Shown: positions 3,308-26,293, counted from the first letter of the stretch. The stretch: 64,000 nucleotides of DNA from an uncultured Methanoregulaceae archaeon (GCA_963737635.1 CAVTTL010000001.1:2240001-2304000), one strand, 5' to 3'. The notes: a model not told the origin generated them from the letters alone. Program-made: numbers and translations.

Positions 3308-3387
3308 GTTCTCTACTATACGTTTGCATGACCTTTGACTAATAAGTATTTATCACGTATTTTATTTTACCGGTAAATGTCAGTCAC

Positions 3388-4674
3388 TTACCCGTTCCAA
3401 AGGCACTCGCGATCGTTCATATATGGTCGGAGCACCTGTGGTATGGTTACCGATCCGTCGCGGTTCTGGTAGTTCTCAAGGATACACCGTAACGCTCTCG
3501 AAGTTGCAATGGCAGTCGAGTTGAGTGTGTGGACATGCTGCTTGGACTCGAAATTTTCTTTGTCGCGCACCCGGATGTTGAGACTGGCTGCCTGGTATGA
3601 AGTACAGTTTGAGCAGGATACGACCTCTTTGTAAGCATTTTCCCGGGGCATCCATGCCTCGATGTCATATTTCTTTGCTGCGACCGTCCCGATGTCCCCG
3701 GTGCAAATATTAACCACATGGTACGGGAGTTCCAGTTTCCTGAACACATCTTCGGCATTTGCAAGGAGTTCTTCGTGGATCTGCCATGAATCCCCGGGCC
3801 TGCAGAAAACAAACTGTTCGATCTTCGTGAACTGGTGAACACGGAAGAGTCCTTTGGTATCGAGACCGTGCGCCCCAATTTCCCTTCGGAAACAAGGCGA
3901 AATGCCAGCGAGACGTAAAGGCAGATCTTTTTCCTCGAAGATCTCATCCTGGTACATTGCAGCAATAGGATGCTCACTTGTTGCTATCAGGTACGCGTCA
4001 TCGTTATCAATCTTGTACATGACTTTTTCAAAATCGTCAAGATCGGTGACGCCTTCGTATGAGCTGTGGTTGATCATGAACGGCGGGATGACCGGAGTGA
4101 ATCCTTTCTTTTCGAGGAGATCGAGCGCAAAGCGCTGAAGTGCGAGGTCCAAGAAGACGAGGCTGCCTTTCAGGAAATAGAAACCCGCACCAGAGATCTT
4201 TGCCGCCCTTTCAAAATCGGCCCAGCCTTTGTCGGCAGCAAGCTGCCCATGGTTCCGAATCTCGAAATCGAAGGTTCGGGGCGTACCGACACGACGGACC
4301 TCTACATTCCCGGAATCATCACATCCCTCCGGGACACTCTCATGAAGAATGTTTGGCAGGCGCATAAGCCGGGTGCGGATAAGGTTTGAAATCGCCTCCT
4401 GCTCAGCGTCATTTTCCTTGATCTTTTTGGGAAGTTCGGCAGCTTCTGCCATCAGAGGCGCCGGGTCTTTCCCGGTTTTTCGCGCCTCGTTGATCTCCCG
4501 TGCTATGGTGTTTCTCCGGCGTCGCAGTTCATCGGTCTGTACTTTAAGCTCCCGGGAATGTGCATCCTTTGCAAGTATTTCGTCCACCCATGCAACCTTA
4601 TCCTGAGCGTTTCTTTTGAGCAGATCGGCTTTTACAATCTCCGGGCTTGCCCGGACAAACCTGATTTCAAGCAT
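3388..4674 (-). CDS. serS: Seryl-tRNA synthetase (canonical type)
   Basis: N-terminal coiled coil, LIATSEHP, motif 2 FRREIGAHG..GLFRVHQFTKIEQF, EVVSCSNC, HTLNSTAIATSR. GAGGTG RBS upstream of ATG 4674. Confidence 0.97.
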   Translation of the reverse strand: MLEIRFVRASPEIVKADLLKRNAQDKVAWVDEILAKDAHSRELKVQTDELRRRRNTIAREINEARKTGKDPAPLMAEAAELPKKIKENDAEQEAISNLIRTRLMRLPNILHESVPEGCDDSGNVEVRRVGTPRTFDFEIRNHGQLAADKGWADFERAAKISGAGFYFLKGSLVFLDLALQRFALDLLEKKGFTPVIPPFMINHSSYEGVTDLDDFEKVMYKIDNDDAYLIATSEHPIAAMYQDEIFEEKDLPLRLAGISPCFRREIGAHGLDTKGLFRVHQFTKIEQFVFCRPGDSWQIHEELLANAEDVFRKLELPYHVVNICTGDIGTVAAKKYDIEAWMPRENAYKEVVSCSNCTSYQAASLNIRVRDKENFESKQHVHTLNSTAIATSRALRCILENYQNRDGSVTIPQVLRPYMNDRECLWNG

Positions 4675-4960
4675 CTGATGCACCTCTACGATAATCCCTG
4701 GCCTTTGTCCAAAGGGATCTTCTGGCTAATGTAATTCCTGTATTAGTGTAACATGTTTTACCTTATTATGTTTCGATGCGCATCCAGGTAAATCCACATA
4801 ACACTATTATGTTGTTAAATTTATCGGAGAATTTTTGTTTTAAATTGCCCGATTTGAATTTCGTTTGCGTAAAAACGGCAGAATTGCGCCAGCGTAAAGA
4901 ATCTATGACCGTGATAATCCCAAAAACCAAAAAAACGCCCGTCGGAAGCGATATTATTAT

Positions 4961-5093
4961 ATGAGCTCGGCGTCAACTTTTAAGAAATGAGGAGACGGGC
5001 TGTTCTGCTCGTGCTCTCCGACTGCCATTCGGATCGAATGGGGGGATGATCGGCACAATGCACTGATTAAAACAATGAGTTCGTGGGTGACGC
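4961..5093 (+). promoter_or_regulatory. Structured 5' leader upstream of the Mg2+ transporter operon
   Basis: Hairpins 4991-5019 and 5024-5041. 4970-4975 is complementary to 5088-5093, overlapping the GGGTGA RBS. 20-codon uORF at 4987-5049. Confidence 0.35.
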
Positions 5094-6362
5094 ATGGATT
5101 TTCTGTCTAAATTCTATTTTAACTACCGGAAAATAATCAAGACCATCCAGATATACCTGTTGCTGGCAGGTCCCGGGCTTATCGTGATGATTGCGGACAA
5201 CGACGCCGGTGGCATTACTACCTATGCTGCAACTGGTGCGCAATACGGATTCAACCTTATTTGGTTCCTCATCTTACTCGGGCCTGTTGCGTATTTTGTG
5301 CAGGAGATGACAGTCCGTCTGGGAGCCGTCACCAAGCACGGGCATGCAGAAGCGATCTTCAATGCATTCGGCTCGTTTTGGGGTTGGTTCTCTCTCATTG
5401 ACTTAAGTGTTCTCAATTGGCTTACGATGGTCACCGAGTTCATAGGAATGACCGCGGCGCTCAGCATATTTGGTTTTCCACCAATACTTACTGTCATAAT
5501 TGTTATTCTTGTAATGTTCGGTATAGTCATGTCAGGACGGTACTGGACATGGGAGAAGATCACGATGGTCTTCTGCGTCGTCAACCTGATCTATATTCCG
5601 GCAGCAATCATTCTCCACCCCTCGGTTTCTGATATTCTCCAGAAGGGTTTAATTCCCAACTTTCCGGGAGGCTTTAACGGCCAGCTCTTCTTCTTCCTGA
5701 TGGCAAACATCGGAACAACGATCGCACCATGGATGATCTTCTTCCAGCAGAGCGCCGTCGTCGACAAGAATATGAAGGAGAAGGATATTCCGTGGGGGAA
5801 ATTTGATACAGTGATGGGGGCCTTTTTCACCGTTGTCGTTGCAATATTCGTCCTCATCGTGACAGGTACGCTCTTGTACGGCCAGAATATAAATGATGCC
5901 GGAGCCGCAATTAGGGCGATAATGCCCATCCATCCCTATGTAGGTACCTTATTTGCCATCGGTTTATTTGATGCCGGATTCCTCGGCGCGATCTGCATCG
6001 CGCTTACCAGCTCATGGGCATTTGGGGAGGTTTTCGGATGGGCGCACTCGCTAAACTACAAGGTGAAAGAAGCATTTTGGTTCTACGTATTCTACTTATT
6101 AGGGCTGACGACCGCGGGAGCCGTCGTGCTCATTCCGGGAGCCCCGCTAGTACTAATTACTCTGTTTGTGCAAGTTGTCGCTGTGACTTTGTTGCCGGCA
6201 GCGCTGGTCTTCCTCATCATTCTCCTCAACAACGAGGATATTATGGGAAAATACAAAAATAGTCTCTTTGACAATATCGCGAACATATCGATCGTTGCGT
6301 GCATTATCGTATTGTCAACACTCTACGGCATTAGCACGCTGTTCCCGAACCTGTTCGGGTGA
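5094..6362 (+). CDS. NRAMP-family divalent cation transporter (Mg2+-type)
   Basis: GPGLIVMIADNDAGGITTY TM1 motif (DAGG variant rather than MntH DPGN), QEMTVRLG, IGTTIAPWMIFFQQS; about 11 TMs. Confidence 0.9.
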   Translation: MDFLSKFYFNYRKIIKTIQIYLLLAGPGLIVMIADNDAGGITTYAATGAQYGFNLIWFLILLGPVAYFVQEMTVRLGAVTKHGHAEAIFNAFGSFWGWFSLIDLSVLNWLTMVTEFIGMTAALSIFGFPPILTVIIVILVMFGIVMSGRYWTWEKITMVFCVVNLIYIPAAIILHPSVSDILQKGLIPNFPGGFNGQLFFFLMANIGTTIAPWMIFFQQSAVVDKNMKEKDIPWGKFDTVMGAFFTVVVAIFVLIVTGTLLYGQNINDAGAAIRAIMPIHPYVGTLFAIGLFDAGFLGAICIALTSSWAFGEVFGWAHSLNYKVKEAFWFYVFYLLGLTTAGAVVLIPGAPLVLITLFVQVVAVTLLPAALVFLIILLNNEDIMGKYKNSLFDNIANISIVACIIVLSTLYGISTLFPNLFG

Positions 6363-6375
6363 GGGAGGGAGAGAA

Positions 6376-6588
6376 ATGGTAGCAATTGAAAGTGTCTTCG
6401 GGGATCGGATAGGAAGTATCCTACGGAATTCGACGGAAAAGATCCGCAGCATTAACCAGAAATATGCGAAGCCTCAGATCAAACTATCAAGAGGAGCGGC
6501 GTTCGCCCTTCTCGGCCTCAGGCTGTACCTCATCCTTCTAGTTGTTCTGCTTGCCTACAAATTCTGGACAATTGTTACGGGAGCCTGA
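6376..6588 (+). CDS. Small (70 aa) single-TM protein of the Mg2+ transporter operon
   Basis: ATG 6376 after GGAGGGAG; C-terminal TM FALLGLRLYLILLVVLLAYKF; tightly packed between the two flanking genes. Confidence 0.75.
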   Translation: MVAIESVFGDRIGSILRNSTEKIRSINQKYAKPQIKLSRGAAFALLGLRLYLILLVVLLAYKFWTIVTGA

Positions 6589-6589
6589 C

Positions 6590-7870
6590 ATGACGCAGAA
6601 CGAGACTGCCGCGGGTGCGGCAAAGATCGCAGACCTAGAAATCTTTCTAAGCGAGATCCTGAGTATCCCGGTCATCCTTCGGGGAAAAAAAATAGGCACA
6701 CTCAGCGACCTGATCATTGTGGAGACGGCCCGGATACCTGAAGTAAAATCACTGTATGTCACGCGATCGTTTGGGAAACCCAGCCTTATCATACCTTGGG
6801 AAAACGTTGTGGAGCTGGCTGAACGCCAGATCGAGGTCGATATTCCTAATCTTGAACAATTCGAGGCGGAACCTGCCGAAGATGCAATCCTTCTCAAAGA
6901 TTATGTGATGGATAAAAAGGTGCTCGATCTTGAAGAAAGCGAAGTAGAGGTCGTGTATGATATACGGCTCATCCAAAGAAACAAAAAACTCTATGTGACT
7001 GATGTGGATACGGGGAAATCTGCACGTCTGAGAAGATTCGGCCTAGGACTGTTTTCAAAGATCGTCTCCGCTGATGCCAAGGATGACCAAATGATCTCCT
7101 GGGCCTATATCCAGCCGCTACCCACCAACATCGGCAGTTTCAAAGGTAACGTGAAACTGAAAGTATTAAAGGAAAATCTCGCGGAAATTCACCCGGTTGA
7201 CCTTGCTGATATTCTCGAAGAACTCGATCACGATCAGAGGGTTGCTGTCTTTACTTCGCTTGACAACGAACATGCATCTGACACTTTAGAAGAGATCGAG
7301 CCAAACGTCCAGCGGGATATTATTGCCTCTCTCGATATAGAAAAAGTGGTTCCTCTTATCAACACCATGACGCCCGGTCAGGCTGCCGATGTCCTCTCGG
7401 CCATCCCCCATTCTCAGGCCGAGGATATCCTTGAGGCCCTCAGCCCCGATACGGCAAAGAAGGTGCGTGCGATCATGGAGAAACAGGAGGAGAAGGTGAT
7501 CCATTACACAACCCAGAAGATCCTGAAATTCCTCCCGGATACGCTGGTCGAGTACGTACAGAACGATTATCCGAGTCATGCCCGGGGAAAAGATGTCATC
7601 ATGTACGTCTACGTGGCGGATTCAGGAGATCATCTGCTGGGGGTCGTCGATCTCAAGGATCTGCTGATTGCAGACGACAAAGCGCCCCTCGCAGCGATCA
7701 TGTCAGAAAACGTGATCAGCCTGAATGAAGGCAGCACGCTCAAGGAAGCTTCGCAGGAGTTCGAGCGATACGGTTTCCGGGCCCTGCCGGTCACTGATGA
7801 CGATAACCGCCTTATCGGGGTTATCCCCTACCGCGATGTCATGAACCTGACCCATCACTTCCTCGAATAA
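6590..7870 (+). CDS. MgtE intracellular-domain protein (PRC-barrel + MgtE_N + CBS pair, no TM)
   Basis: PRC-like repeats, HPVDLADILEEL MgtE_N motif, CBS domains (YVYVAD..LLGVVDLKDL; ALPVTDDDNRLIGVI). Confidence 0.9.
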   Translation: MTQNETAAGAAKIADLEIFLSEILSIPVILRGKKIGTLSDLIIVETARIPEVKSLYVTRSFGKPSLIIPWENVVELAERQIEVDIPNLEQFEAEPAEDAILLKDYVMDKKVLDLEESEVEVVYDIRLIQRNKKLYVTDVDTGKSARLRRFGLGLFSKIVSADAKDDQMISWAYIQPLPTNIGSFKGNVKLKVLKENLAEIHPVDLADILEELDHDQRVAVFTSLDNEHASDTLEEIEPNVQRDIIASLDIEKVVPLINTMTPGQAADVLSAIPHSQAEDILEALSPDTAKKVRAIMEKQEEKVIHYTTQKILKFLPDTLVEYVQNDYPSHARGKDVIMYVYVADSGDHLLGVVDLKDLLIADDKAPLAAIMSENVISLNEGSTLKEASQEFERYGFRALPVTDDDNRLIGVIPYRDVMNLTHHFLE

Positions 7871-7944
7871 GGTGGGAACAGATCAGGTATTGGGGCTGGT
7901 GTTATTTTTTCCGCGATCATGGCAAAGAAACGGGCAATCCGATA

Positions 7945-8589
7945 ATGGAAGCATCGATGAGCATAGATCGTAACGCAGAAAACTGGGAAAAGGATTACTC
8001 ACATCGGGGACGCATCTGGGGCGGCGCTATGCATCATCCTCTGCCACTCAGCGCCGGAGACCGTGTACTCGAACTTGGGTGCGGAAGCGGGAAGACCTGT
8101 AATTTATTATTGGAAAAAAAGTGCGAGATTATTGGAGTCGATTTCTCAGCTTCCGCACTACACCTGTGCAGATCTTACACACCGGAGAGAACGGAAGGAC
8201 ATTTTGTCCTCGCGGATGTCTGCGGCCTACCCTTTCCTGATGCATCGTTTGATGTCATCATCGCCTTCCATATCATCGGCCACCAGTCCGCCGAAGGACG
8301 TACGATCTGCGTTAATGAAGCCGCCCGGGTAATGAGAGATGGGGGAACCCTGTATTTTTCCGGTTTTTCCAAGGAGGACTTCCGTTCCGGTACTGGTAAT
8401 GAGGTTGAACCGGGCACCTTCATGCGGAAAAGCGGGATCGCCACCCACTACTTCTCTGAGGATGAAGTATTGGCACTTTTCCGGGGACTGATTCCCTGTG
8501 AATGTTTTACCCGGCACTGGACGATGAAAGTGCGCGGACATTTGCTTCCCCGTGCCGAGATTGCAGCCTCATTCAAGAAAAACTCCTAA
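7945..8589 (+). CDS. Class I SAM-dependent methyltransferase
   Basis: VLELGCGSG motif I, GVDFS, LPFPDASFDVI. Confidence 0.9.
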   Translation: MEASMSIDRNAENWEKDYSHRGRIWGGAMHHPLPLSAGDRVLELGCGSGKTCNLLLEKKCEIIGVDFSASALHLCRSYTPERTEGHFVLADVCGLPFPDASFDVIIAFHIIGHQSAEGRTICVNEAARVMRDGGTLYFSGFSKEDFRSGTGNEVEPGTFMRKSGIATHYFSEDEVLALFRGLIPCECFTRHWTMKVRGHLLPRAEIAASFKKNS

Positions 8590-8681
8590 AATACCGGGCA
8601 TATCGTTAAATCAAGTCATAACAAGAAGGAATTATTAAATGGCGTAACAACCTTCTTTTCTTCCTCACGGGAAGTGATTGT

Positions 8682-9215
8682 ATGAAGAAACTATTCCTTC
8701 TTGTACTGTTTGTGTGTATCGCAATAGTCGGATGCGTCATGGCAGCAGTTCCTGCTGCCAACCAGACCCCCACCGTAAACGAAACAACGGCCCCGCAGCT
8801 TATCGGCGGAGACATGGGTACCTACCTTGTCACAGCAAACGTTAACGGGGCAAACGTCACCTTCGATTCGGATTACAAAGGTGTTATTACCGGTGGCCAG
8901 CTTGCTGTCAGCGTGTACACCACCGGTACCCCATACCGTATTATCACAGTCGAGGCTCCTGGCTATGCCATTTATTCTGCGAATATCACGCAGTACCCGG
9001 GGAAAAACGAGACCGTAGATATTCCGGTTACGCTGGTCCCGCTTGCTGCGGCCAACACCACCGTTCAGGCAAATGTGACTTCAATGGTAAGCCTTTCTCC
9101 AGAAATGACTACAGCTGCCGCGTCTCCGGCCCCCACCCAATCCGGTAGCCTGCCGTTTGCTGCCTGTGCAGCCTTTGTTGTCATCGGCATCTTCTCGATC
9201 CGATCACGGCGTTAA
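8682..9215 (+). CDS. Secreted PEGA-like surface glycoprotein with C-terminal sorting/anchor signal
   Basis: Signal peptide, GGDMGTYLVTANVNGANVTFD, many N-x-T sequons, TQSGSLP-TM-RSRR tail. Confidence 0.75.
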   Translation: MKKLFLLVLFVCIAIVGCVMAAVPAANQTPTVNETTAPQLIGGDMGTYLVTANVNGANVTFDSDYKGVITGGQLAVSVYTTGTPYRIITVEAPGYAIYSANITQYPGKNETVDIPVTLVPLAAANTTVQANVTSMVSLSPEMTTAAASPAPTQSGSLPFAACAAFVVIGIFSIRSRR

Positions 9216-9380
9216 ATAAATCATCTTCTTTTTTCAAGTCCGTTCTGGCGAATCGGTGTTACGCTGGTGCCCAATGCTATTGATTGCGTATTAGTACCAC
9301 GGTCAGCCCGGTTTTTACTGCAGCTTATTGTCCCGTGTCCTATGTTGATATAGGCAGTTTGTCCAATATCTATACTATTC

Positions 9381-10037
9381 ATGCTAGAATCGCTCGCAGG
9401 CCTCATCTTTCATCTTGATCAGCACTTGGCTGGAGTTGTACACACTTACGGTATGTGGACCTACCTGCTGTTATTCTGCATCATTTTTTTTGAGACCGGG
9501 TTTGTCGTCACTCCGTTCTTACCCGGGGATTCCCTGCTCTTTGTTTCCGGGGCACTGGCTTCAGTCGGCATTCTGAACCTTAATCTCCTGATCCTAGCCT
9601 TTTTTCTTGGGGCTGTATGCGGTGATACGGTCAATTACTGGCTGGGTAACTTCATCGGAATCCACGTTTTTCAGGAACGGTTCCCGAATCTCATAAAAAA
9701 GGAGTATATTGACGATACCTATGCCTTTTTCGAGAAGTATGGAGGTACAACCGTCTTTGTCGCCCGGTTCGTGCCAGTAGTCCGGTCGTTCGCACCGTTT
9801 CTTGCCGGTGTCGGTACAATGGAGTATCACCGGTTCCTCTTTTATAATGTGCTCGGGGCGATCTCCTGGACGCTTACCGTGGTTCTTGCCGGGTATTACC
9901 TCGGAAGGCTTCCCATTGTGCGGGAGAATATGAATCTGCTCCTCCTCTTTGTAGTCATAGTGACCGCTGGGACGATCCTCCTTCTCATTGCCGGGCTCAT
10001 TAATTCATACCTGCATAAGAAACAGCATGAGCACTAA
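9381..10037 (+). CDS. dedA: DedA/VTT family membrane protein
   Basis: FETGFVVTPFLPGDSLLF, GDTVNYWLG, ARFVPVVRSFAPFLAG. Confidence 0.92.
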   Translation: MLESLAGLIFHLDQHLAGVVHTYGMWTYLLLFCIIFFETGFVVTPFLPGDSLLFVSGALASVGILNLNLLILAFFLGAVCGDTVNYWLGNFIGIHVFQERFPNLIKKEYIDDTYAFFEKYGGTTVFVARFVPVVRSFAPFLAGVGTMEYHRFLFYNVLGAISWTLTVVLAGYYLGRLPIVRENMNLLLLFVVIVTAGTILLLIAGLINSYLHKKQHEH

Positions 10038-10146
10038 TGGTATGGGCTTACCGGTTTCGTATCAATCAATATCCTCTATGTGACCCTGTTTTTCAAACTT
10101 CAAAAAATAAGACATTTGTTCCTCATTCCTGAGGTGAACGCTTGGC

Positions 10147-15675: not shown

Positions 15676-16092
15676 CTAAACCCGGAATGCGACACCGTCA
15701 AACAGGGCAATCGTTTTCTCGCCTTCGTATACGATGACGCGATATGTCTCGCAGGATCCGTTCGAGGCAATACGCTCTGCAACCGCAACAAGCTGGCCCC
15801 GGGCAGGTGCAATATACTGGATATGCACGGAGATGGCTGTATAGTAGTCTTTGCCGCAATTGGATGCAATGCCAAAAGCGTGGTCGGCAAGAGAGAAAAC
15901 AGCTCCGCCATGCGCGATGCCGTGCGGGTTAGACTTTCCTATACAATCCATCTCGACACGTGCATAACCGTCACGGGCCTCGGTAATATGCATACCCAGC
16001 AACCGGCCAAACTCGCTTTTTTCGAATGACATGATCGTATCGTTTTTAGATCCCAGGAGTTGTTTCTCCGGCAATTTTCGAGTCCCGGTCAT
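15676..16092 (-). CDS. PaaI-family hotdog-fold thioesterase
   Basis: NPHGIAHGGAVFSLADHAFG motif. Confidence 0.9.
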   Translation of the reverse strand: MTGTRKLPEKQLLGSKNDTIMSFEKSEFGRLLGMHITEARDGYARVEMDCIGKSNPHGIAHGGAVFSLADHAFGIASNCGKDYYTAISVHIQYIAPARGQLVAVAERIASNGSCETYRVIVYEGEKTIALFDGVAFRV

Positions 16093-16304
16093 GGAATCCC
16101 TACCCAAAGAACATACCTCATCCGTATCTCATGCTTCGATATACTTTCACGTTTGTCGCTTCGAGACAATTTCTATTGGTATTGATTACTCTTTGGCAAT
16201 TCGAATCTGTCTTTTCACGCACAGAATGATCTTTGATAAATCGAGATAAATAACAGTGCTCTGGACGCATCTTCGATTTATATCTATTTTCCCCATGTTA
16301 CTTG

Positions 16305-16572
16305 TTCTTGTGATTCCGGTGAGAGAGAGGGATCTCCGATACCAAAAAGAGACCCATCATATTTCCTTCACCAATTCTTCGCTTCAATATGACTGATTTC
16401 ATTCCTCCGGGATGTCAGCCTCACTATCTGAGAAAACGATCCGCATGTTAGGCCCATCCTACTCTGCTGTTATCGCAATCTGAGTGGAATCAACAATATC
16501 GGCACTGAACCGCTTATCCTTTTCCAGAAAGAGTTTCCCTAGTTCAAGGAGGTTCATCACCAATATAGAGCC
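16305..16572 (-). pseudogene. Degenerate remnant of a hybrid REC-histidine kinase
   Basis: Fragments LYIGDEP / LLELGKLFLEKDKRFSADIVDS (REC start) and MRIVFSDSEADIPEE* / GLFLVSEI / SLTGIT (HATPase end), with stops and frameshifts. They resemble both ends of the intact kinase at 45046-47347. Confidence 0.6.
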
Positions 16573-16593
16573 GAAGTCTACCGGATGATGATT

Positions 16594-16995
16594 CTATTGT
16601 CGGATCGGACTCTCTGAATGAGCTGCTGAAATAATTGACCGTATTGTCGTTTCGAGCCCATCAAGATTAAAATAAGAGTCAGGAATTTTCGGAACAAGAG
16701 CAACCCGGCCATACCGTATAAGATCATCTTCCGGAATGAGATTTTGCCCTATCCTGAAAAAAACAAAGGGCACCATGTTCCCTTTCTGTCTTATGTTGCG
16801 AAGGAGAGCAATACCGGCTGATTCTCTGGAGATATAATTGGTAACAATGGCGTCAAAGGAAATATACTCCATTTTCCGCATCGCCTCTTCAACAGAGTAT
16901 GATGTTTCAATCAGGATATCTCCCCCCCGCTCAAGAAAACTCCTGGCGGTATCCTCTAAAGGCGATTCTTCATCAACATAAAGTACGAAAATCAC
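16594..16995 (-). CDS. Stand-alone atypical receiver-domain protein (phospho-Asp replaced by Asn)
   Basis: VLYVDEE..FDAIVTNY (canonical DAIVSDY in the window's kinases)..VPFVFFR..VPK. Confidence 0.8.
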   Translation of the reverse strand: MIFVLYVDEESPLEDTARSFLERGGDILIETSYSVEEAMRKMEYISFDAIVTNYISRESAGIALLRNIRQKGNMVPFVFFRIGQNLIPEDDLIRYGRVALVPKIPDSYFNLDGLETTIRSIISAAHSESPIRQ

Positions 16996-17115
16996 GAATA
17001 ATCACCCGTTTAGGTCCACAATTCTCCGGATTGAAAAAGATTAATTTTCCTCTATTTGTTCAGAGATCTTTTCCAATCCGTCAGAGTCAAACTACGAAAC
17101 CAGCCTGTAAAACGT

Positions 17116-17655
17116 TCAGATTGACGTATCCACATCTTCCAACAGCTGCTTGATATCGATCCAGATGATCAGTTCGTTCTTCTCTTTGTCTTTGACCTTT
17201 ACTTTCCTCTTGATAATTCCAATGATAGCCGTGTCTTCCTTGCTCACGGATGCAGATGTGTAATCTACCTGATTTGCTTCAAATGTCGAAACCGATGTAA
17301 CATCGTCGACGAGGATTCCGATCTTTGTACCGGTAATCTTATCGTCGAGAACGATAATTCGCGATGATTCAGCTGCTACTTTGCTGTTCTCTGTGATGTT
17401 GAGTCGTTGTTTGAGATCGATGATAGTCGTGATCTCGCCCCGGAGATCGATGATCCCTTTTATGTATAATGGCACGTTGGGAAGTTTGGTAATCGTGGTG
17501 TATTCAACGACTTCCTTGACATCAAACAGATCGATGGCAAAGAGCTCCTGGCCCAGGACAAACTCGACGATCTGGATGCTGCCCTGCCGTTTCCTGGTTG
17601 TAACCTCTGGAGTGGGGTCTTGCGCAACCTGTGGCTCACTTGGTTTTGCCGCCAT
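17116..17655 (-). CDS. cheW: Chemotaxis coupling protein CheW
   Basis: IVEFVLGQELFAIDL..VKEV, KGIIDLRGEITTIIDL, GILVDDV. Confidence 0.95.
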   Translation of the reverse strand: MAAKPSEPQVAQDPTPEVTTRKRQGSIQIVEFVLGQELFAIDLFDVKEVVEYTTITKLPNVPLYIKGIIDLRGEITTIIDLKQRLNITENSKVAAESSRIIVLDDKITGTKIGILVDDVTSVSTFEANQVDYTSASVSKEDTAIIGIIKRKVKVKDKEKNELIIWIDIKQLLEDVDTSI

Positions 17656-17669
17656 GATAACGCCCCGGG

Positions 17670-19148
17670 TTAATTCACCTTGAATTTCTTGTTCGCTTCC
17701 ATTGCCTCGATCGCGATTTTGTCAACGGTTTCCATCATCCGGGTGATCTCGTCCAACGCGGCTGATGACTCTTCGGTTGCTGCTGCAGCATCGCCTGCTT
17801 CCTTTGCAGTTTGTTCTACCAAGCTTGCGACCTCGCTGACACTTGCCGTTATCTCTTCCGTCGTTGCAGCCTGCTCCTCAGTAGCTGCCGCAACTTCCGT
17901 CGCACTCGCAGCCACCTTTTCGATAGCGGACGCAATCTTGTTGAAGGACTGCAGCGTTTCGGTCACCATCTTCGAACCCTGTTCGACCGTCCCTTTCGCG
18001 TCGTTCATCGCAGCTGATGCGTTCTGGGTGCTCTTTTTGAGAGAGGCGATCATCTCTTCGATCCGCTCAGCTGAGTTGCGGGATTCCTGAGCCAGCGATT
18101 TCACTTCAGTGGCGACGACCGCAAAACCACGCCCTGCATCTCCGGCGCGTGCCGCTTCGATCGCAGCATTGAGCGCCAGCAGGTTTGTCTGGTTGGCCAG
18201 TTCGCGGATAAGTATGACAATCTTAGAGATTTCGCCCATCTGTGACTCCACCTCGGTTACAATCTCGTAGACTTTTGCTGATGAGGTAGAGATCTCAGCC
18301 ATACTCTTCTCTGCCTTCCCGGCGAGCTCAGCACCGGAATGGGAAAGGTCGTTCGTCTGCTTGGAAAGCGTTGAGACCGATTCCATGCTCGATGTAATTT
18401 CTTCGACGGCTGCGCTCATATCCTGCATCGCTTTCGCAATCTGATCCACACTCTGGGAGACTTTTTCTGCGTTGCTGCTGACTTTGCTCGCATTCTGGGC
18501 GATCTGTTGGACACCTTTAGAGCCCTCTTCAACACTGTGGGTCGCATTATCTGCCGTCGTGACCAGATTCTGCATCTTCTTGTTGACATCAGCGATATTG
18601 TTTTCAAGATTGACAACAATCGCTCGGACTGCATCTCTGACTTTAATAATCTGATCATGGGTCTCTTTTGTGTCTTCGTCAGGTTGCGATATTGTGTACC
18701 TCGGTGTTAGGTCCCCGGATGCCATTATCGCATAGACCTTTGCCATTTCATCAATCTCATGGGACATATACTCCTGAACTTTGACTATCTTCGTGACTTC
18801 GTTGTATGTGAGATAGAGGTACTTCACATCGCCTTTTTCATTCAGCAGCGGGATGTTCGTCCTGACCACGACATGCAATCCGGAAGGCGTTTCAATAGTA
18901 CTCTGTCCAACGGTTGTCCGCCGGCCATTGATTGCATCAGTCACCGATTCACCAGAGTCCTTAAGGTACTTCATCATTCCCTGTGCCCGGAAATCGGAGT
19001 ACTTTATCGCAAGCAGTCGATCCTTATTGTACCCGACCAGCTTGCTGAATGCATCGTTCACCATGACAAACTTAAGATTGGCATCCACAACTGCATGAGC
19101 CAGTGGATTCCTCTCAAACATTTCTGTTAATTCCTGTAACTCAACCAT
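17670..19148 (-). CDS. Soluble PAS-domain methyl-accepting chemotaxis protein
   Basis: N-terminal PAS, HAMP-like segment, signalling tip [40 protein letters not shown]; no TM helix. Start is ATG 19148 or GTG 19157. Confidence 0.95.
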
Positions 19149-19153
19149 GTTTT

Positions 19154-19741
19154 TCACCCGAGTCTAATGACCTGTTCTTTGTAAACTTCATTCATCAATT
19201 CGCCAAGACCTGTGTACATCGCAGATAAGCCGCAGATGATACCCACAACACCAGCGATCCCAAGGACTGCAGTGCTGCCGATTTGGTTCCCCGCAATCAG
19301 AAGGAGGAACAAGGCGGTGAGGAGACCAAAGACAACCCGGAGCGCTATGGATAGTCTGAATGTAATAATGAACATCACGAGCGAGAACAAACCCCAGAGC
19401 GTAAGAAACGATACAAGCGCTTCTTTTTCAAGCGGGACACTCCAGCCAAGTGCTGGCATGAGGATCAGCCCCACGAGCGAGATCCAGAAAAAACCGTACG
19501 AAATGAACGCTGTCATACCAAAGGTATTATTCTTCTTCCATTCCATGATTCCCGCGATAACCTGCGCAAGGCCACCGAAGAATATACCCATCGCGAAGAT
19601 CACTGAACCCATCCCAAAGAGTCCTGAATTATGCAGGTTCAGGAGAACAGTCGTCATTCCGAATGCCAATAACCCAAGCGGTGCCGGGTTAGCAGTTATG
19701 TCAGCGATACTAATCGCATCCTTGCTTTTTTCAATATCCAT
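19154..19741 (-). CDS. satP: Acetate uptake channel, GPR1/FUN34/YaaH (SatP/AceP) family
   Basis: Signature [11 protein letters not shown] and FISYGFFW; 6 TM helices. Confidence 0.93.
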
Positions 19742-19765
19742 TTTTTCACCACTCCTTTCTTTTAC

Positions 19766-19918
19766 TCATTTCAACGTTACTGCCGGCAGAGCAGTATAAT
19801 CATCGAACTTCTGTACGAGTTGATCCAGAACGCCAAAGTACTCCTGGATATCTGTCTCCACAGATCGTTGACTCAATGAATTTCTGGTTTCGTCCAAACC
19901 CAGTTTTCCCATGCTCAT
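19766..19918 (-). CDS. Putative 50-aa small protein heading the satP operon
   Basis: MSMGKLGLDETRNSLSQRSVETDIQEYFGVLDQLVQKFDDYTALPAVTLK*. GAGG RBS-like element upstream; ends 24 nt before satP. Confidence 0.5.
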   Translation of the reverse strand: MSMGKLGLDETRNSLSQRSVETDIQEYFGVLDQLVQKFDDYTALPAVTLK

Positions 19919-19937
19919 CCTCAATTATCTGAACCGC

Positions 19938-20050
19938 AAAAACCGGAAGAATCCGGTTTTTTGGGTTGTAAATATCCATTTTCCTTAATATTATTTAAAC
20001 TTTTTGTTCTATGATGATTATTGAATTTGATTATTGAAGATTAACAATAA
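19938..20050. promoter_or_regulatory. Divergent promoter region with hairpin and repeated operator-like motifs
   Basis: 10-bp inverted repeat 19938-19947/19952-19961; TTTAAATA TATA on - strand at 19992-19999; TGATTATTGAA direct repeat at 20015-20025 and 20028-20038; TTATTG-N8-CAATAA palindrome at 20031-20050. Confidence 0.55.
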
Positions 20051-20096
20051 AGATATATATTGGCAATCAACAATTATTATTTAATGAGATGATATT

Positions 20097-21788
20097 TTGG
20101 AACGGGAAAGCGAATTAGAGCGAATCAAGGATATCTTAAAAATCAATCCCAAAGGGTTGACTATTGAGGAAGTATCGAAAAAACTTTCGCTTAACCGGGC
20201 AACAGCCGCAAAATATCTCAATTCCTTGGTAATGGCAGGGCTGGCAGATCTGCGGGAATTGGGACGGGCCGAGCTTTTCTATATAAGTCATCGGGTTCCG
20301 TTGACCAACATGTTAAGTCTGGCGTCGGATCTTATTCTGATATTGGATAAAGATCTCTTCATACAGGAAGCAAATGACACCTTGCTGGCTTATTTCAAGG
20401 TTTCAAAAGAAGAGCTGAAGGGAAGGCAATTGGAGCATTCATCTCTTGCCCCATATTTTACCGAAGAGCATTTAGCCGCTCTGAAACAGGCACTTGATGG
20501 ATCGGGAAGCAGGTTTGAACTCTATATCGATGGAATCGGTCAGGATCAGTTCTTCCGGATGAAATTAATACCCGTCGTATTCGAAGAAGGTGAGCGCGCT
20601 GTCGGTATCGTATTGGAAGACATCACCGAGATGAAGAGATACCAGCAAGAACTTGAAAACCGTGTTGTTGAACGAACCAATGAGCTTGTCGTCACCAATG
20701 AGGCCTTGCATAAGCAAATACGGGATCGTATCCTTGCCGATGAAGCACTTCGGGAGAGCGAGGAAAAATACCGGGACATCTTCAATAACACCAATGACGC
20801 CATTCAGATCATCGAGCTTGACGATAGTGGATATGCTGGCAGATTCATAGACGTCAATGAGCCTACCTGCCGTCTGTTACAGTACACTCATCATGAATTG
20901 TTGCAGAAACGCCTCTTGGATATAGAGACAAATTATTCCAGGAAAAATATAGATCTGATCGAGAAAGAAATGAGAAAGGCTGGATCATCGACATTCGAAA
21001 CAGAGCTTATTAGAAAAGATGGGGTTCTCATTCCGGTTGAAGTTAGTCTGCATCCTGTTGCATTAAAGGGGAGACACGTGGCCATATCGGTGGTCCGGAA
21101 TATTACCGAGCGTAAACAATGCGACATGGCAATAACAAAGGCAAATAAACAGGTCACCTTGCTCACGGCTATAACCCGTCATGATATTCTGAATCAGCTC
21201 TCGCAGCTGGAAGCATACATATCTCTTTCAAAAAAACAGCCGGGTAGTGGTATATTTGCTGATTTGATTCAAAAAGAAGAATCTGTTGCCCGTACAATCC
21301 GGCGCCAAATCGTGTTTACCCGGGATTATCAGCATGTTGGAGTGCAACCTCCTCAATGGAAGAATGTAAAAGGTACAATCTCTTCGATCGTTTCAACCGT
21401 CCCTCTTGGGGACATATCTACGATTCTCGATACGGGAACACTGGAGATATATGCTGATCTCCTAGTCGAGAGAGTCTTTTTCAATCTCATTGAAAATACC
21501 CTCCGCTATGGAGGGCATGTTACAAGGATCCGCGTATCATATCAGCAGAAAGAAAATGAAATGATCCTTATCATTGAAGACGATGGCATCGGCATTCCAG
21601 AAGAGGATAAGGATAAGATTTTCACCCGGGGATTTGGGAAAAATACGGGTTATGGTTTATTCCTCGTTAGGGAAATTCTATTGATCACCGGTATTACAAT
21701 CAAAGAAACCGGTGAACCGGGCAAAGGTGCACGGTTCGAAATGACCGTCCCGAAAGGTGCATGGCGATTTTCAACATCACTACAATAG
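20097..21788 (+). CDS. Winged-helix HTH-PAS-PAS histidine kinase
   Basis: N-terminal GLTIEEVSKKLSLNRATAAKYLNSL HTH, two PAS domains, H-box TRHDILNQL, N-box FFNLIEN, EDDGIGI, GFGKNTGYGLF. Confidence 0.92.
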   Translation: MERESELERIKDILKINPKGLTIEEVSKKLSLNRATAAKYLNSLVMAGLADLRELGRAELFYISHRVPLTNMLSLASDLILILDKDLFIQEANDTLLAYFKVSKEELKGRQLEHSSLAPYFTEEHLAALKQALDGSGSRFELYIDGIGQDQFFRMKLIPVVFEEGERAVGIVLEDITEMKRYQQELENRVVERTNELVVTNEALHKQIRDRILADEALRESEEKYRDIFNNTNDAIQIIELDDSGYAGRFIDVNEPTCRLLQYTHHELLQKRLLDIETNYSRKNIDLIEKEMRKAGSSTFETELIRKDGVLIPVEVSLHPVALKGRHVAISVVRNITERKQCDMAITKANKQVTLLTAITRHDILNQLSQLEAYISLSKKQPGSGIFADLIQKEESVARTIRRQIVFTRDYQHVGVQPPQWKNVKGTISSIVSTVPLGDISTILDTGTLEIYADLLVERVFFNLIENTLRYGGHVTRIRVSYQQKENEMILIIEDDGIGIPEEDKDKIFTRGFGKNTGYGLFLVREILLITGITIKETGEPGKGARFEMTVPKGAWRFSTSLQ

Positions 21789-22012
21789 TCAGGGATTATG
21801 AGTATGCCAAGCAGGATGATAGTCTGGAAAACAGAAACGACCTCTTCATTACGAGAGGGGGTCCCATCGTTTAGGTGATTTTAATATTATCTTGTGTTCT
21901 ACCATTTTTCAATTTGTCATTTAATATGTATTAAAAACAGAACACATATATCAAAGTTATAATAAATCTTGATGACCGCATATCGGATGTGATTTGAACG
22001 AGGACAAAAAAA

Positions 22013-22372
22013 GTGACCTATTTTACGGAAAAAGAAGAAGAATTTACGAACCTCCTCATTGAGATTGGGATGAAAAAAAATGTGGCAAAAGTGCTGGTTT
22101 TCTTAGCGAATATTCAGGAAGCAACATCACGTGAAATCGAGCGAGGGACCGATTTACGCCAACCGGAAGTAAGTATTGCAATGCAGCACCTGCTGGATCG
22201 TGGGTGGATTGCAAACCGCGAGAGTAAGGCCGAGAATAAAGGACGCCCGGTTAAGATCTATAAACTTGCAACTCCCGTAACCGATATCATGGACAGCATC
22301 GAAAAAGAGATGATGAAAATAACAACCAAAAAACTTGCTCTGGTTCATAAATTACAGAACTACATTAATTGA
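22013..22372 (+). CDS. Winged-helix transcriptional regulator (ArsR/TrmB-like, methanogen family)
   Basis: SREIERGTDLRQPEVSIAM..KGRPVKIY. Confidence 0.85.
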   Translation: MTYFTEKEEEFTNLLIEIGMKKNVAKVLVFLANIQEATSREIERGTDLRQPEVSIAMQHLLDRGWIANRESKAENKGRPVKIYKLATPVTDIMDSIEKEMMKITTKKLALVHKLQNYIN

Positions 22373-22470
22373 TGGAATTAGCTAAATCAGTTTTTGATTT
22401 TTTAGAACTCGAAGAATACGATTTCGGCGTAGTCGATATTCTTCTGCATTTAAAAAAAAATACGTATAAT

Positions 22471-23170
22471 TTACTTGTATTTTTTCTGAGTATATGCATA
22501 CTTTTGAGTCTCCCCACCATGAGCGACGATATAAAGCCACTCATACAGGGATTTGAACGTGCCGTACTGCTGGTACCTGCGCATAGAGAAACCAACTTTT
22601 AATTTGCCGTCGAACCGGATTTTTCCCAAATCTTTCATGCGCATCGCAATCTCGATATCATCTCCGGCGTCAATGCAACGATACATGCCAGCCCTTATAA
22701 ATGCCTCCTTGCGAAACGCAGTGTTACAACCGAGCGTATAATAGAAGGTGCGGCTGTAAAACCCAATACGGGAGAAGGTATTTGCGAGGAGAAGCGAGAA
22801 ATGGTTACCGATGCTGTCCTCTATGGGATAGACTGTGCCGTAAACCTGTACGATCAGCCGGATTAGCGAAGTCCTTCCTGATACGATCGATCCAATCCGG
22901 CGGGAGGATGCAGTCTGCATCGGTCGAGGCGATGATATCACCTTTTGCTGCAATGACCCCATCGTTTCGTGCCCCGCCGACTTTTTTGCTCTTCTGGATG
23001 AAGACTTTGTCGGCATATTTCCGGGCAATTTCGCAGGTCTTGTCAGTCGACCCGCCATCGACTACGATAATCTCGTACTCGTTCTTGCTGACTGTCTGGT
23101 GCGAGAGTGAGACCAGGCACTGGGCTATGTTCTCCTCTTCATTAAAGGAGGGGACAATGACCGAAATCAT
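22471..23170 (-). CDS. Family 2 glycosyltransferase (indel near 22858)
   Basis: ISVIVPSFNEE, IIVVDGGSTD, ARNDG, TDAD; continuation GCNTAFR..DDIEI..SMRR in the second frame. Confidence 0.88.
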
Positions 23171-23242: not shown

Positions 23243-24555
23243 TTATGATGGATGTGATTGTATAAACTCCAGTACACTTCGGATGCATCCGTCCATATTG
23301 AGGTATTCGAACTGGGCAAACCGGCCCACGAGCGGGATATCGATCGCCTGGCAGAAATCACGGACGACGGCAATGTTCTCCTGGTACTTTTTATCATATA
23401 CCACGTAAGCAAATGACTGGCGCACTACTGAAGAAAACACCACCTGGTCCGGTGTAATAAGTCCCATATTGGCGAGCATCCCGGTGACCTCATCGATCAG
23501 ATCTTCATCGCTCATCCGCGCCACGGGATCTCCTGGCTGGTGAGTGATCTCGGAAAGAATGGCACTGCAGCCTTCCGGCGCCACGTGCCGGCTGTATTGC
23601 GAGGGAAACGAGATCCGGTTGGTCTTACCAAGCGCCGGGTCGGGGATGTAAAGCCAGGAGTATCCCGGGACATCCCCCCGAATGCCAATATTAACACAGG
23701 CAAGGGAATTATAGGTAAGTTTGTCACAGGCCTTCTTTACTTCAGGTGGTACCCCGTGAAGCGCTGCAATCAGGTGCTGGAGGGGGATCGTAGAGATTAT
23801 CCGATCTACCTTGATCGTTTCTGAGCCATTACTGATGAGCCACTTCATTCCCTGTTTCCTTATGGAACGGATCCGGAAATTGTTTTTTATGAATGGCTCA
23901 ACCGCCGGGCAATTGCTTTTACCAGAGATTCGATACCCCCGTCAAGCGGGTACGAGAAGACTGCCTGGTGGATGTACCCTTCTGTGGAGATGCCGATAGC
24001 GGATTTGATCACATCGTCGATTGGTGGTCGCGGGATCCGCCCATCCACCCAGTGAAGAGACATGCTGTCAGTCGGGTACTTCCAGATCTTCTCGTTATAG
24101 GGAACCATATAACACTCAGCGATCCCTTTCCCAAACGTGTAATAGATCCAGTCACGGAATGTCCGGGGGGGCGCAAGTTCGCCTTTTTCTACGGCAACAA
24201 GAGTCTTGACAAACTCGCTGATACAAAAGAACCGGTCCTCTGCAGGAAGATCACTAAGGCCGTTCTCAAAGGGGTACTTCACGTACCTACCCTTATAGAA
24301 GATCTTCGTATTCCGGATGTTCTCCTGTTCGTTTCCCTGGATCATCTTCCGCATGAAGGCGAGGACTTCAGCATCACGTGAGAAGATAATATGCGAACCG
24401 CCGGTATCGAAGGTAAACCCATCCGAAATATAAGACCGGCAGAGCCCGCCATATTCCGGCTCTGCTTCAAGGATCACGAGATCGGTGCCTTTTTCATAGA
24501 GGAGCCGGGCCAGTGTCAGGCCGGATAAGCCGCCCCCGAGAATTGCCGTTTTCAC
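23243..24555 (-). CDS. FAD-dependent oxidoreductase (protoporphyrinogen oxidase / UDP-galactopyranose mutase-like; indel near 23903)
   Basis: GGGLSGL dinucleotide motif, GGLCRS, FDTGGSHIIFS, PYNEKIW, GRFAQFEYLNMD. Confidence 0.85.
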
Positions 24556-24709: not shown

Positions 24710-26293
24710 GTGGATCTGATTATTCAGTTTATTTTGGCCATCCTGCCCATCCTTATGATCTTTATCGGACTTGTCTTCTTCAAGCAGTCCGGTACGCTTA
24801 TGGGCATTCTTGGATGGATTCTGACGGTTATCATAGCGGTCATTTTTTTCCAGACCAGCGTTCCTGTGGCATTGGCAGCGTCATGGTATGGCGTACTCTC
24901 TTCGTTTGGAATCTCGCTGATGGTACTCTTTACCATCCTGCAAGTCACTATGATGGATTTAACCGGTGCGATCGCCAGCATTACGGCATACATCAAAACT
25001 ATCGCGGCAGAGCGGTACGAGCAGATAATGATCCTGAACGTAGGTTTTGGGACGTTTTTAGTCTCAATAGGGGCAACACCGGTGACCATGCTCCCACCAA
25101 TCATGCTTGCGCTAGGATTCTCACCTCTTGCCGCAGTTGCCCTGCCCTGTATGGGGTATGACCCGCTTACTTCATTCTCGCTGCTTGCCGTCCCGATCAC
25201 ACTGCCGGCATCGGCCTTTGGTCTTGACGTGAGATCGCTCGGGATCACGGTCGCCTGGTTCCTGCCGGTAATATCGACCGGTATCGCTCTCGCTATGCTC
25301 TGGGTCGCCGATGGCATCACTGGTGTGAAGAAAGGATTCCTCACGGCACTTGTCGCAGGCCTGACACTTGGGCTCTGTGCGATCCTCTTTGTGCATATCC
25401 TCCCGGCAGCGGCCATCGGTCTTGTTGGGGTCTTCTCGGGCGTCGTTACTGTTGCCGTCCTCTTCCTGATGAGAAAGATCCGGGGCAGGCCGCTTGATGT
25501 TTCAGAGCCTGCCACAATAGCAGCAGCAAGAGAAGAAAGGAAGAGTAAGATGCCGCTCTGGAAGGCATCGCTTCCCTGGCTAATGCTCGTGATCTTCTGT
25601 ATCATCATCAGCATCCCCGTCATCCAGGGTATCCTGCTTGCGTCCCTTGGTAACCTGCAGAAGATCCCGGTTATGGCCGACCAGATAGTCAACCTGAAGC
25701 TTTTAAATCAGGCGTACTTCTGGGTGCTGGTAAGCACCATTATTACCGCGCCGATTTTGATCCGGTCAAAAGATGAACTCAAAAAAATTACCACGGTCTG
25801 GCTGAAACGTTCGTGGAGCCCGACGCTTGCCGCAATGGTCTTTTTTGCTATTGCCTATGTAATGGACTGGTCAGGAAAATCCGTAATCAGCGGTGCACTC
25901 ACGTTCGCACCGAATGCTTCCGGGTTCAACATGAACATCGTTATTGGCACCGTGCTTGCACTCGCCTTCGGCCTTGCATTCCCGCTGATCAGCCCATCGA
26001 TGGGCCTGTTCGGCTCGTTTGTCTCAGGCAGCGAGACCTCTTCCAACGTCATGTTTTACGGCATCCTCAAAAAATCGACCGAAATGCTCAACCTTGACTT
26101 CATGAAAGTCTACGCCGCGCATATGGTTGCGGGAGGTATCGCATCAGGTATAGCGGTCGCAAAGATCATCAATGCTGCAGCTGTCGTCGACAAGATCGGT
26201 ATCGAAGGAGAGGTTGTCCGCAAAGTCGCACCGGTTGCGATTGTGCTGACTATCATCACCGGTATTATGCTGGCGCTGATGCTGATCTTCTAA
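24710..26293 (+). CDS. L-lactate permease (LctP) family transporter
   Basis: About 14 TMs, LGFSPLAAV, GLFGSFVSGSETSSNVMF, KIINAAAVV..GIEGEV. Confidence 0.85.
   Translation: MDLIIQFILAILPILMIFIGLVFFKQSGTLMGILGWILTVIIAVIFFQTSVPVALAASWYGVLSSFGISLMVLFTILQVTMMDLTGAIASITAYIKTIAAERYEQIMILNVGFGTFLVSIGATPVTMLPPIMLALGFSPLAAVALPCMGYDPLTSFSLLAVPITLPASAFGLDVRSLGITVAWFLPVISTGIALAMLWVADGITGVKKGFLTALVAGLTLGLCAILFVHILPAAAIGLVGVFSGVVTVAVLFLMRKIRGRPLDVSEPATIAAAREERKSKMPLWKASLPWLMLVIFCIIISIPVIQGILLASLGNLQKIPVMADQIVNLKLLNQAYFWVLVSTIITAPILIRSKDELKKITTVWLKRSWSPTLAAMVFFAIAYVMDWSGKSVISGALTFAPNASGFNMNIVIGTVLALAFGLAFPLISPSMGLFGSFVSGSETSSNVMFYGILKKSTEMLNLDFMKVYAAHMVAGGIASGIAVAKIINAAAVVDKIGIEGEVVRKVAPVAIVLTIITGIMLALMLIF

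Follow-up and report, generated by a model that had tools for sequence, protein, structure and literature searches.

A SatP channel paralogue paired with a soluble chemoreceptor in Methanoregulaceae archaea: a candidate case of transport-dependent chemoreception

Chemoreceptors without a membrane-spanning sensor are known from archaea. The receptor Car (Htr11) of Halobacterium salinarum is a soluble methyl-accepting chemotaxis protein (MCP) that lacks transmembrane (TM) segments and reads intracellular arginine, and the taxis it mediates is uptake-dependent (PMC7289035). In the pairs SRI/HtrI, SRII/HtrII, BasB/BasT and CosB/CosT, the receptor draws its input from another protein, whose gene neighbours that of the transducer; in the Htr cases, transducer and rhodopsin are physically joined (PMC7289035). 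Soluble MCPs with a dedicated CheW also form arrays off the membrane, as in R. sphaeroides, cluster I of V. cholerae and Methanoregula formicica, in the last of which cytoplasmic arrays have been imaged (reviewed in PMC7534058). Among methanogens, Methanospirillum hungatei swims toward acetate, an essential nutrient (PMC4704411); as PMC7289035 describes the field, genetic or biochemical work has yet to be joined to such observations. Here we describe a locus in a 64,000-nucleotide stretch of DNA from an uncultured Methanoregulaceae archaeon (GCA_963737635.1, CAVTTL010000001.1:2240001-2304000; this whole stretch is the window, and coordinates are positions in it) in which a paralogue of the acetate channel SatP is encoded immediately upstream of a soluble MCP and a CheW.

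The satP-MCP-cheW arrangement is a chemosensory cassette specific to the Methanoregulaceae lineage. The reading that we prefer, to which we give a probability of roughly 45%, is transport-dependent chemoreception: a dedicated channel would admit acetate, and a cytoplasmic receptor would read it. We infer that the ligand is acetate, that the PAS domain of the MCP senses it, that a divergent winged helix-turn-helix (wHTH) kinase controls the operon, and that motility is the output. On these terms, one promoter would drive a small open reading frame (ORF), the SatP paralogue, a soluble PAS-HAMP MCP, CheW and usually a CheY-like receiver. The channel would let external acetate, or a close small carboxylate, equilibrate into the cytoplasm, where the PAS domain would read this ligand or the first product made from it in metabolism. 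The signal would then pass through HAMP to the MCP tip and the CheW of the module, from there to the single CheA of the genome, and via CheY and CheF to the archaellum, and the wHTH kinase would control the operon.

The genes concerned lie on the minus strand, in the order given by a sequence-only reading of the window, which ORF calls and profile scans against curated Pfam and NCBIfam cutoffs confirm: a 50-aa ORF (19766..19918), satP (19154..19741, 195 aa), the MCP gene (17670..19148, 492 aa from its ATG), cheW (17116..17655) and an atypical stand-alone receiver (16594..16995). The gap between the MCP gene and cheW was re-read and is 14 nt, the value first reported, and the one between cheW and the receiver is 120 nt. 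SatP is a member of the AceTr (GPR1-FUN34-YaaH) family of acetate channels, matching PF01184 with 128.7 bits (cutoff 25; E = 3e-37) and NF038013 (AceTr_1, "acetate uptake transporter") with 240.7 bits (cutoff 50). Its residues 17-195 align gap-free to the solved SatP structures 5YS3 and 5ZUG, and the signature motif is present as ANPAPLGLL at residues 17-25; the AceTr signature is given as NPAPLGL(M/S), and the constriction of the E. coli SatP pore as F17/Y72/L131 (PMC8379382). Among 21 linked SatPs, by which we mean those encoded next to an MCP gene, N18, P19, L22, G23 and L24 are invariant. The constriction positions are F27, Y82 and L141 here, mapped via the 5ZUG alignment on the assumption of two extra N-terminal residues in the chain; conservation is complete for F27 and at least 90% for Y82 and L141. 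A174 is kept too, and the equivalent position in E. coli SatP alters specificity (PMC8379382). Judged by these residues, the linked SatP looks like a working channel.

The receptor downstream has an MCP signalling domain (PF00015, 167.3 bits, cutoff 34.6, E = 3.8e-49) and a PAS domain (TIGR00229, 37.1 bits, cutoff 22.9). HAMP scores under its Pfam cutoff (16.8 bits against 25); an invariant G-D-L-T between two helices is HAMP-like, and an AlphaFold2 model of residues 1-175 (pLDDT 91.3) gives a PAS fold and, after it, two helices that flank G-D-L-T. The earlier statement that the MCP has no TM segment holds on a simple hydropathy scan, used in place of a dedicated predictor: its highest 19-residue Kyte-Doolittle mean is 1.06, compared with 2.60 for SatP. 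Since all four MCPs of the genome are without a TM-grade segment (maximum 19-residue hydropathy at most 1.19), the whole receptor set of this genome looks cytoplasmic, and an external solute would therefore have to pass into the cytoplasm or be sensed by way of a partner. The CheW of the module, a module-specific coupling protein (PF01584, 99.1 bits, cutoff 23.5, E = 2.1e-28), is encoded at one of five CheW-domain loci in the genome.

The junction between satP and the MCP gene (19146..19159, minus strand) consists of GGGTGA, which comprises a glycine codon and the stop of satP and is at the same time the ribosome binding site (RBS) of the MCP gene, a 5-nt spacer and the MCP ATG. The satP stop TGA occupies 19156..19154, and the ATG at 19148 follows it by 5 nt; a GTG at 19157 overlaps the stop. 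The sequence-only reading had offered two possibilities, a satP stop inside the RBS of an MCP starting at the ATG, or a start at the overlapping GTG. All but one of 21 distinct linked loci share the layout L-G-stop in GGGTGA, 4-7 nt and ATG, and the protein begins M-[VIAP]-[ED]-L from the conserved ATG; the exception is locus L040, where MCP homology starts ~80 nt downstream. Because locus L061 has TAA in place of TGA at the satP stop, by which the GTG is lost, the ATG is the conserved MCP start; the first possibility thus stands and the second does not. The layout suggests that satP and the MCP gene are co-translated. Loci with MCPs of 55-88% identity still have it, within flanks that vary: identity among the upstream kinases is 26-67%, and different genes lie downstream.

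The adjacency is clearly not limited to one locus or to one genome; the latter is an outcome that the sequence-only reading would have taken as refutation. This genome holds another complete module at a distance of 1.07 Mb (L001; G000:C1:1184000-1198000, ~2945-10135), which comprises a divergent kinase, the small ORF, satP, MCP, cheW, a receiver (REC) and a REC-PAS-histidine kinase (HK). Its MCP and SatP are 79% and 77% identical to those of the window, and it has the same satP/MCP junction. We sampled 201 Methanomicrobiales genomes, which hold 25 full-length MCP orthologues at 58% identity or more; each of the best 14 SatP hits (66-100% identity), from 10 genomes of one family, lies 0-10 nt 5' of a full-length MCP orthologue. 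Carriers are 9 of the 16 genomes of the genus, this one counted, and 1 of 28 from the family's other genera, and four genomes (G000, G143, G139 and G127) have two pairs each. Surveyed across the Methanomicrobiales, as the sequence-only reading had proposed, the pairing thus recurs in the Methanoregulaceae and was found in none of the 157 genomes sampled from the order's five remaining families; in the two large genomes of one of these families (f4), SatP is acs-linked, that is, it lies by the gene for acetyl-CoA synthetase, with no MCP pairing.

Metagenomic contigs give the same picture. An MCP query of named metagenome-assembled genome (MAG) contigs found 35 loci, of which 32 were assessable and 3 were ended by a contig edge; SatP lies directly upstream of the MCP in 15 of the 32 (frameshifted in two of the 15), and cheW follows the MCP in 34 of the 35. 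Because sampling based on the MCP is biased, metagenome contigs were also scanned with a SatP query, which yielded 80 loci (77 assessable). In this sample, which is drawn from related populations so that the trials are not independent, an MCP follows 47 of the 77 SatPs overall, 43 of 48 at 64% identity or above and 4 of 29 below 64%. Being so recurrent, the satP-MCP pairing is far beyond chance, and the system is confined to the Methanoregulaceae and a few unclassified MAGs. Two loci of these surveys deserve separate mention. At G041:C8:838703-843151, another full-length MCP of the family (60% identity) stands downstream of satP-MCP, from which a gap of ~0.9 kb, about the size of cheW, separates it; this locus is a tandem receptor variant of the module. 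A satP-MCP-cheW-HK locus in a Dehalococcoidia bacterium MAG (L045) probably reflects a binning error; in a 43-row tree its SatP lies beside that of a Methanoregula MAG (L044) on a zero-length end branch.

The linked channels form a lineage of their own. In a SatP tree of 122 rows, a clade with support 100 and a stem length of 0.35 contains 72 rows, of which 66 are linked, 5 stand alone and 1 is cut by a contig edge; L061 and L062 are the only linked rows outside it. A second tree, computed with IQ-TREE from 43 rows, places 19 of the 21 linked SatPs in a single clade (SH-aLRT 87). An approximately unbiased (AU) test gives no grounds to claim a second, independent origin of the pairing in L061/L062, since it does not reject monophyly of all linked SatPs (p = 0.38). 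The stand-alone SatPs of the same genomes fall in other clades, and in 13 of 22 loci from two families their gene lies directly 3' of the acetyl-CoA synthetase gene (acs). This genome is included, with acs (631 aa) and then a stand-alone satP on the same strand (L003 4606-7175; G000:C1:935605-938175). The order acs-satP ties the SatP family to acetate use in these organisms. No MCP or CheW was found within ~4 kb of the more distant SatPs (44-60% identity; 0 of 22). Four SatP genes are present in this genome and, given the distinct clades and contexts, these methanogens keep an assimilation copy in acs-satP and separate receptor-linked copies.

A history with a single ancestral insertion of satP beside an MCP gene, inherited ever since with no functional link, would be compatible with the one origin that the AU test allows, with the narrow distribution in one family and with the fact that losses do occur. 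We nevertheless hold it to be very improbable: junction and gene order have been kept at MCP identities of 55-88% despite the turnover of the flanks, the SatP-seeded counts differ sharply between close and distant SatPs, duplicated modules keep the pair intact, and the pore residues are under constraint.

If the pair does have a functional link, channel and receptor might also touch. In such a transceptor, the channel would be the membrane-borne input module of the soluble receptor, in the manner of sensory rhodopsins and their Htr transducers; the PAS domain would dock on the cytoplasmic face of SatP, that is, on its termini and loops, and read acetate occupancy or flux, with part of the array tethered to the membrane; because the MCP has no TM segment, any contact with SatP would be on that face. 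Both SatP termini are intracellular (PMC8379382). Nine residues split linked from stand-alone SatPs (F49, L94, M95, F112, I126, N152, M175, M183 and E189). Two of them, M183 and E189, belong to the cytoplasmic C-tail, as contact would suggest, and E189 stands against K/R in stand-alone copies, a charge reversal; most of the nine, however, are in TM segments or outer loops. The junction of 4-7 nt with the RBS in the end of satP, kept in 20 of the 21 distinct loci, favours coupled synthesis, and the long stem of the linked clade points the same way.

The fate of receptors that have lost SatP speaks for coupling and equally for transport-dependent chemoreception. In all three clean sister pairs, the SatP-less MCP is the more diverged, by 6-10 percentage points in the PAS domain and by 2-12 in the HAMP region, whereas the signalling domains differ by at most 1.5 points. 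No such difference in PAS/HAMP divergence is seen in a fourth pair, in which the satP of the "linked" member is frameshifted. In this small sample, sensor drift after SatP loss fits a receptor specificity tied to SatP. Elsewhere in the AceTr family, many 351-aa proteins (among P0004-P0069) consist of SatP (residues 18-197) and a C-terminal domain of ~150 aa, which gives weak RsbRD_N matches of 20-25 bits (cutoff 24.3), with one of three proteins passing (P0007, P0051, P0064). Such proteins suggest that other lineages have connected AceTr channels with a cytoplasmic domain. On the other side, nothing is added to the linked SatP, neither a domain nor an extension, and its alignment with the solved stand-alone channels covers their full length; many members of the MCP family function without SatP. 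A natural SatP-MCP fusion was not found among 81 longer SatP proteins (E <= 1e-10; 4169 candidates), which is weak evidence. On balance, physical coupling seems unlikely to us, and transport-dependent chemoreception, which needs no contact, remains our preferred reading.

Control of the operon is suggested by what lies upstream. As first read, a wHTH-PAS-PAS-HATPase histidine kinase (20097..21788) and a wHTH regulator face the operon from the plus strand. The kinase matches PAS_9 (E = 1.9e-22) and HATPase_c (PF02518, 68 bits, cutoff 26.4, E = 1.2e-18), and its first 100 aa match HTH_IclR (25.1 bits, cutoff 22), as do 13 of 13 orthologous N-termini. The AlphaFold2 model of this N-terminus (pLDDT 83.6) has the winged-helix topology a1-b-a2-a3 plus hairpin, with ArsR, SmtB and MarR regulators as the best folds, though the E values are weak (1e-3 to 1e-2); it is thus a predicted DNA-binding wHTH. 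Pfam gave no HisKA hit in the window kinase, in which TRHDILNQ is an H-box-like stretch by eye. A TTTAAATA box (19992..19999, minus strand), a conserved block in the alignment, is the putative archaeal TATA box of the satP-MCP-cheW operon and lies ~80-100 nt from the kinase start in both SatP-linked and unlinked modules. Just upstream of it, two exact copies of TTCAATAATCA, 13 nt apart, form a direct repeat (20015..20038, minus strand) and a candidate operator; they are the sole matches in the window, where 0.07 would be expected. Repeats resembling ATAATCATCAT occupy the same position in L035, L036 and L037, and in L063, which is without SatP.

The 50-aa ORF, which lies in the leader of the satP operon, encodes a conserved peptide, F-x-VL-x-x-L-x-QKF-[DEN]-[DE]-Y, with synonymous-site changes. 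Its profile matches 5' of satP in the window, L001, L007/L037, L035 and L036 (E 1e-24 to 2e-27), is frameshifted in L067 and is weak in L044, L045 and L014. The wHTH kinase facing MCP-cheW is found both with and without SatP, and this divergent kinase/MCP-cheW arrangement is, judging from these comparisons, an older unit than the SatP-bearing module: as promoter and MCP exist elsewhere without satP and the small ORF, these two sit between them here. In the MCP tree, linkage requires at least 7 changes (22 linked and 17 unlinked rows), which do not tell gain from loss, and a clade of 505-aa MCPs (10 rows) has 0 SatP-linked, 9 unlinked and 1 contig-edge member.

It should be noted that a number of findings weigh against acetate reception through the channel. 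The nearest solved folds to the PAS model are the flavin-binding NifL and LOV PAS domains, at 15-20% identity; in the model, the PAS fold is generic, and the fold search does not identify a ligand. M175, one of the linked-specific residues, adjoins A174, and with such a change beside a specificity position the substrate of the linked SatP may not be acetate. The genome has two CdhC genes, so the organism may not depend on acetate. The acetate-tactic member of the Methanomicrobiales, whose behaviour the preferred reading would fit, belongs to another family, without the pairing in the sampled genomes. SatP is absent at 17 of the 32 named loci and at 11 of the 25 MCPs of the genome sample, and the linkage is strong, not obligatory. 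Five close SatPs are without an MCP (L102, L108, L109, L113 and L133), and these exceptions among 48 rule out that a linked-clade SatP never occurs without one. Finally, the recurrence may reflect a single origin followed by inheritance, the contigs being related. Three of the five, L108, L109 and L113, are a small sub-clade of linked-type SatPs with no MCP downstream, two of which still face a divergent kinase, and look like a natural "SatP only" derivative.

The main rival takes up some of these points and holds that the two genes share nothing but their regulation. The operon would be switched on when carbon or energy is scarce, with the wHTH kinase as one possible switch, and would increase acetate uptake and taxis jointly. 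The PAS domain would sense redox, energy or some other metabolite and nothing that SatP delivers, for which the flavin-binding neighbours among the solved folds would speak. It also agrees with this that about half of the MCP family is without SatP and that the kinase facing MCP-cheW, with TATA box and repeats, exists without SatP in L063 and the 505-aa clade. However, a separate SatP clade has been kept beside the MCP even though the same genomes have stand-alone copies, which are acs-linked at 13 of 22 loci; G000, G143, G139 and G127 each retain two pairs; the sensor domain alone drifts after SatP loss; and no invariant Cys or His typical of LOV or heme PAS domains was found in the aligned PAS domains. 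We regard co-regulation alone as possible but doubtful, and keep transport-dependent chemoreception as the preferred reading.

Downstream of cheW, the receiver of the window is degenerate: its PF00072 score of 22.3 bits is under the cutoff of 30.2, and it has Asn at the acceptor position (VTNY) and Arg for the beta4 Thr. The acceptor Asp is kept in 9 of 11 other aligned receivers, among which the motifs VDD, FFT and VPK recur, and the L001 receiver retains it; the two exceptions are L040, whose Asn is followed two positions later by an Asp, and L066, in which a frameshift disrupts the N-terminus. The description of a pseudo-receiver is hence right for the window copy and does not extend to the module. 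A CTTTTTC run in the spacer between cheW and the receiver (17056-17115) is a possible archaeal oligo-T terminator, so that cheW and the receiver may be on separate transcripts; a scan for intrinsic terminators gave none, with bacterial models (including one for sigma-70 promoters) that do not apply to archaea. On the other side of the operon, 225 nt past the kinase, the second plus-strand gene encodes an MreA-family (TrmB-like) wHTH regulator of 119 aa (22013..22372; NF053756, 147.1 bits, cutoff 100), homologues of which are also near the module in L055 and L058. The role of MreA in acetate-dependent regulation is that of the Methanosarcina protein (PMC3419521).

The genome, 2.46 Mb in 4 contigs, has a complete che/archaellum gene set, with one CheA that adjoins CheB, CheF and the archaellin cluster. 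CheR adjoins the two MCPs outside the two modules; these lie, with a CheW, the CheR and a ParA/MinD-like AAA_31 gene, just past the end of the window (L002 4108-9555; G000:C1:2308108-2313555), and one of them is split, with HAMP-PAS-PAS and MCPsignal on separate ORFs. The output of the module might nevertheless be something other than swimming, with the MCP, CheW, receiver and kinases steering transcription or another behaviour. The setting of the module among two-component genes, namely the wHTH kinase, the stand-alone receiver and often a downstream REC-PAS-HK (in L001 with a HisKA score of 26.1 bits against a cutoff of 26.9), would suit such a role, as would the MreA-family regulator nearby in the window, L055 and L058. 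The sole CheA adjoins CheB, CheF and archaellins, however, and the module contains neither a second CheA nor an alternative output gene, which makes a non-motility output quite improbable in our view.

The surroundings of the module add some further observations. The block had been described as visibly more AT-rich than its flanks; the dip is real and only mild, as the GC content of 16000-22500 is 0.445 compared with 0.516 for the genome, the 4.6th percentile of 6.5-kb windows, with ~30 regions of comparable GC in the genome and 0.503 for the MCP gene alone. An origin by horizontal gene transfer was rejected on this ground, the paralogous module being at the 14th percentile. An L-lactate permease gene (24710-26293, plus strand; PF02652, E = 1.3e-50), ~2.3 kb beyond the MreA-like regulator, encodes a further monocarboxylate carrier near the module. 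Between them, a glycosyltransferase family-2 gene (22471-23170) and a flavin amine-oxidase-like gene (23243-24555) each appear as two overlapping or adjacent ORFs. In L001, the kinase is split into an 84-aa wHTH ORF (4743-4997) and a PAS-HK ORF (2945-4693), and cheW is split likewise (7562-7915 and 7839-8102). The split genes in the window, L001 and L002 suggest assembly indel errors and not true pseudogenes.

Acetate taxis of methanogens has been known for decades, and no receptor has been assigned to it; the module is a concrete, testable candidate. Two of the four cytoplasmic-looking chemoreceptors of this genome are paired with what would be a private acetate channel, and this pairing offers an answer to the question of how external chemistry reaches soluble receptors. 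With it come four named proteins open to expression and assay, and the SatP-less loci with a kinase facing MCP-cheW are natural controls. If the channel itself were the sensor, the system would be categorically new, the first chemoreceptor with an ion or solute channel as sensor; if channel and receptor touch, this would be a new way of building a chemoreceptor and a basis for methanogen acetate taxis. Acetate-directed movement would also bear on how hydrogenotrophic methanogens find acetate-releasing syntrophic partners.

Transporters are linked to sensing in other ways in bacteria. The kinases CrbS and CbrA have a fused SLC5 transporter-like domain and act in the acetate switch, and in Pseudomonas putida the transporter PcaK is genetically linked to the sensing of aromatic acids, taxis to which depends on it. 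These systems employ other transporter families, and we know of none among them that joins an AceTr channel to an MCP. A literature search, which covered neither most subscription papers nor supplements, found no description of a pairing of AceTr, SatP or YaaH with a chemoreceptor, in agreement with the sequence-only reading, to which no such system was known. Within the AceTr family, the SatPs (YaaH) of E. coli and Citrobacter koseri align gap-free with the linked copy at ~50% identity by eye (E = 3.7e-55 and 3.4e-53). The solved SatPs are stand-alone uptake channels, whereas the linked copy belongs to a paralogue clade located by a chemoreceptor and has nine clade-specific substitutions. The acs-satP operon involves the same channel family in the same organisms, but its SatP is of a different clade and has neither MCP nor CheW close by.

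Among receptors, the cytoplasmic arrays resemble the module in their soluble MCPs and dedicated CheW; the portion of PMC7534058 drawn on here names no input pathway or transporter partner for them, whereas the module has a channel partner. The SR-Htr, BasB/BasT and CosB/CosT pairs share with the module a separate input protein encoded beside the transducer. The transducers of these pairs, however, meet their partner in the membrane or periplasm with two TM helices, of which the MCP of the module has none, and the partner is a photoreceptor or lipoprotein there and an anion channel here. By analogy, the satP-MCP pair may work like the SR-Htr pairs, yet it is not a member of that kind. The closest likeness is to Car, which is also a soluble, TM-less archaeal MCP. 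Sensor domain and ligand differ between the two, and the table of PMC7289035 lists no partner gene for Car, whereas the module has a co-inherited channel paralogue 5 nt upstream. In its architecture, a soluble MCP encoded with a channel, the module fits intracellular nutrient sensing of the Car kind, and this is how it most likely works. Cytoplasmic sensing of a transported nutrient, and a partner encoded beside the transducer, are thus already known; what the Methanoregulaceae cassette adds to them is an AceTr channel as the partner.

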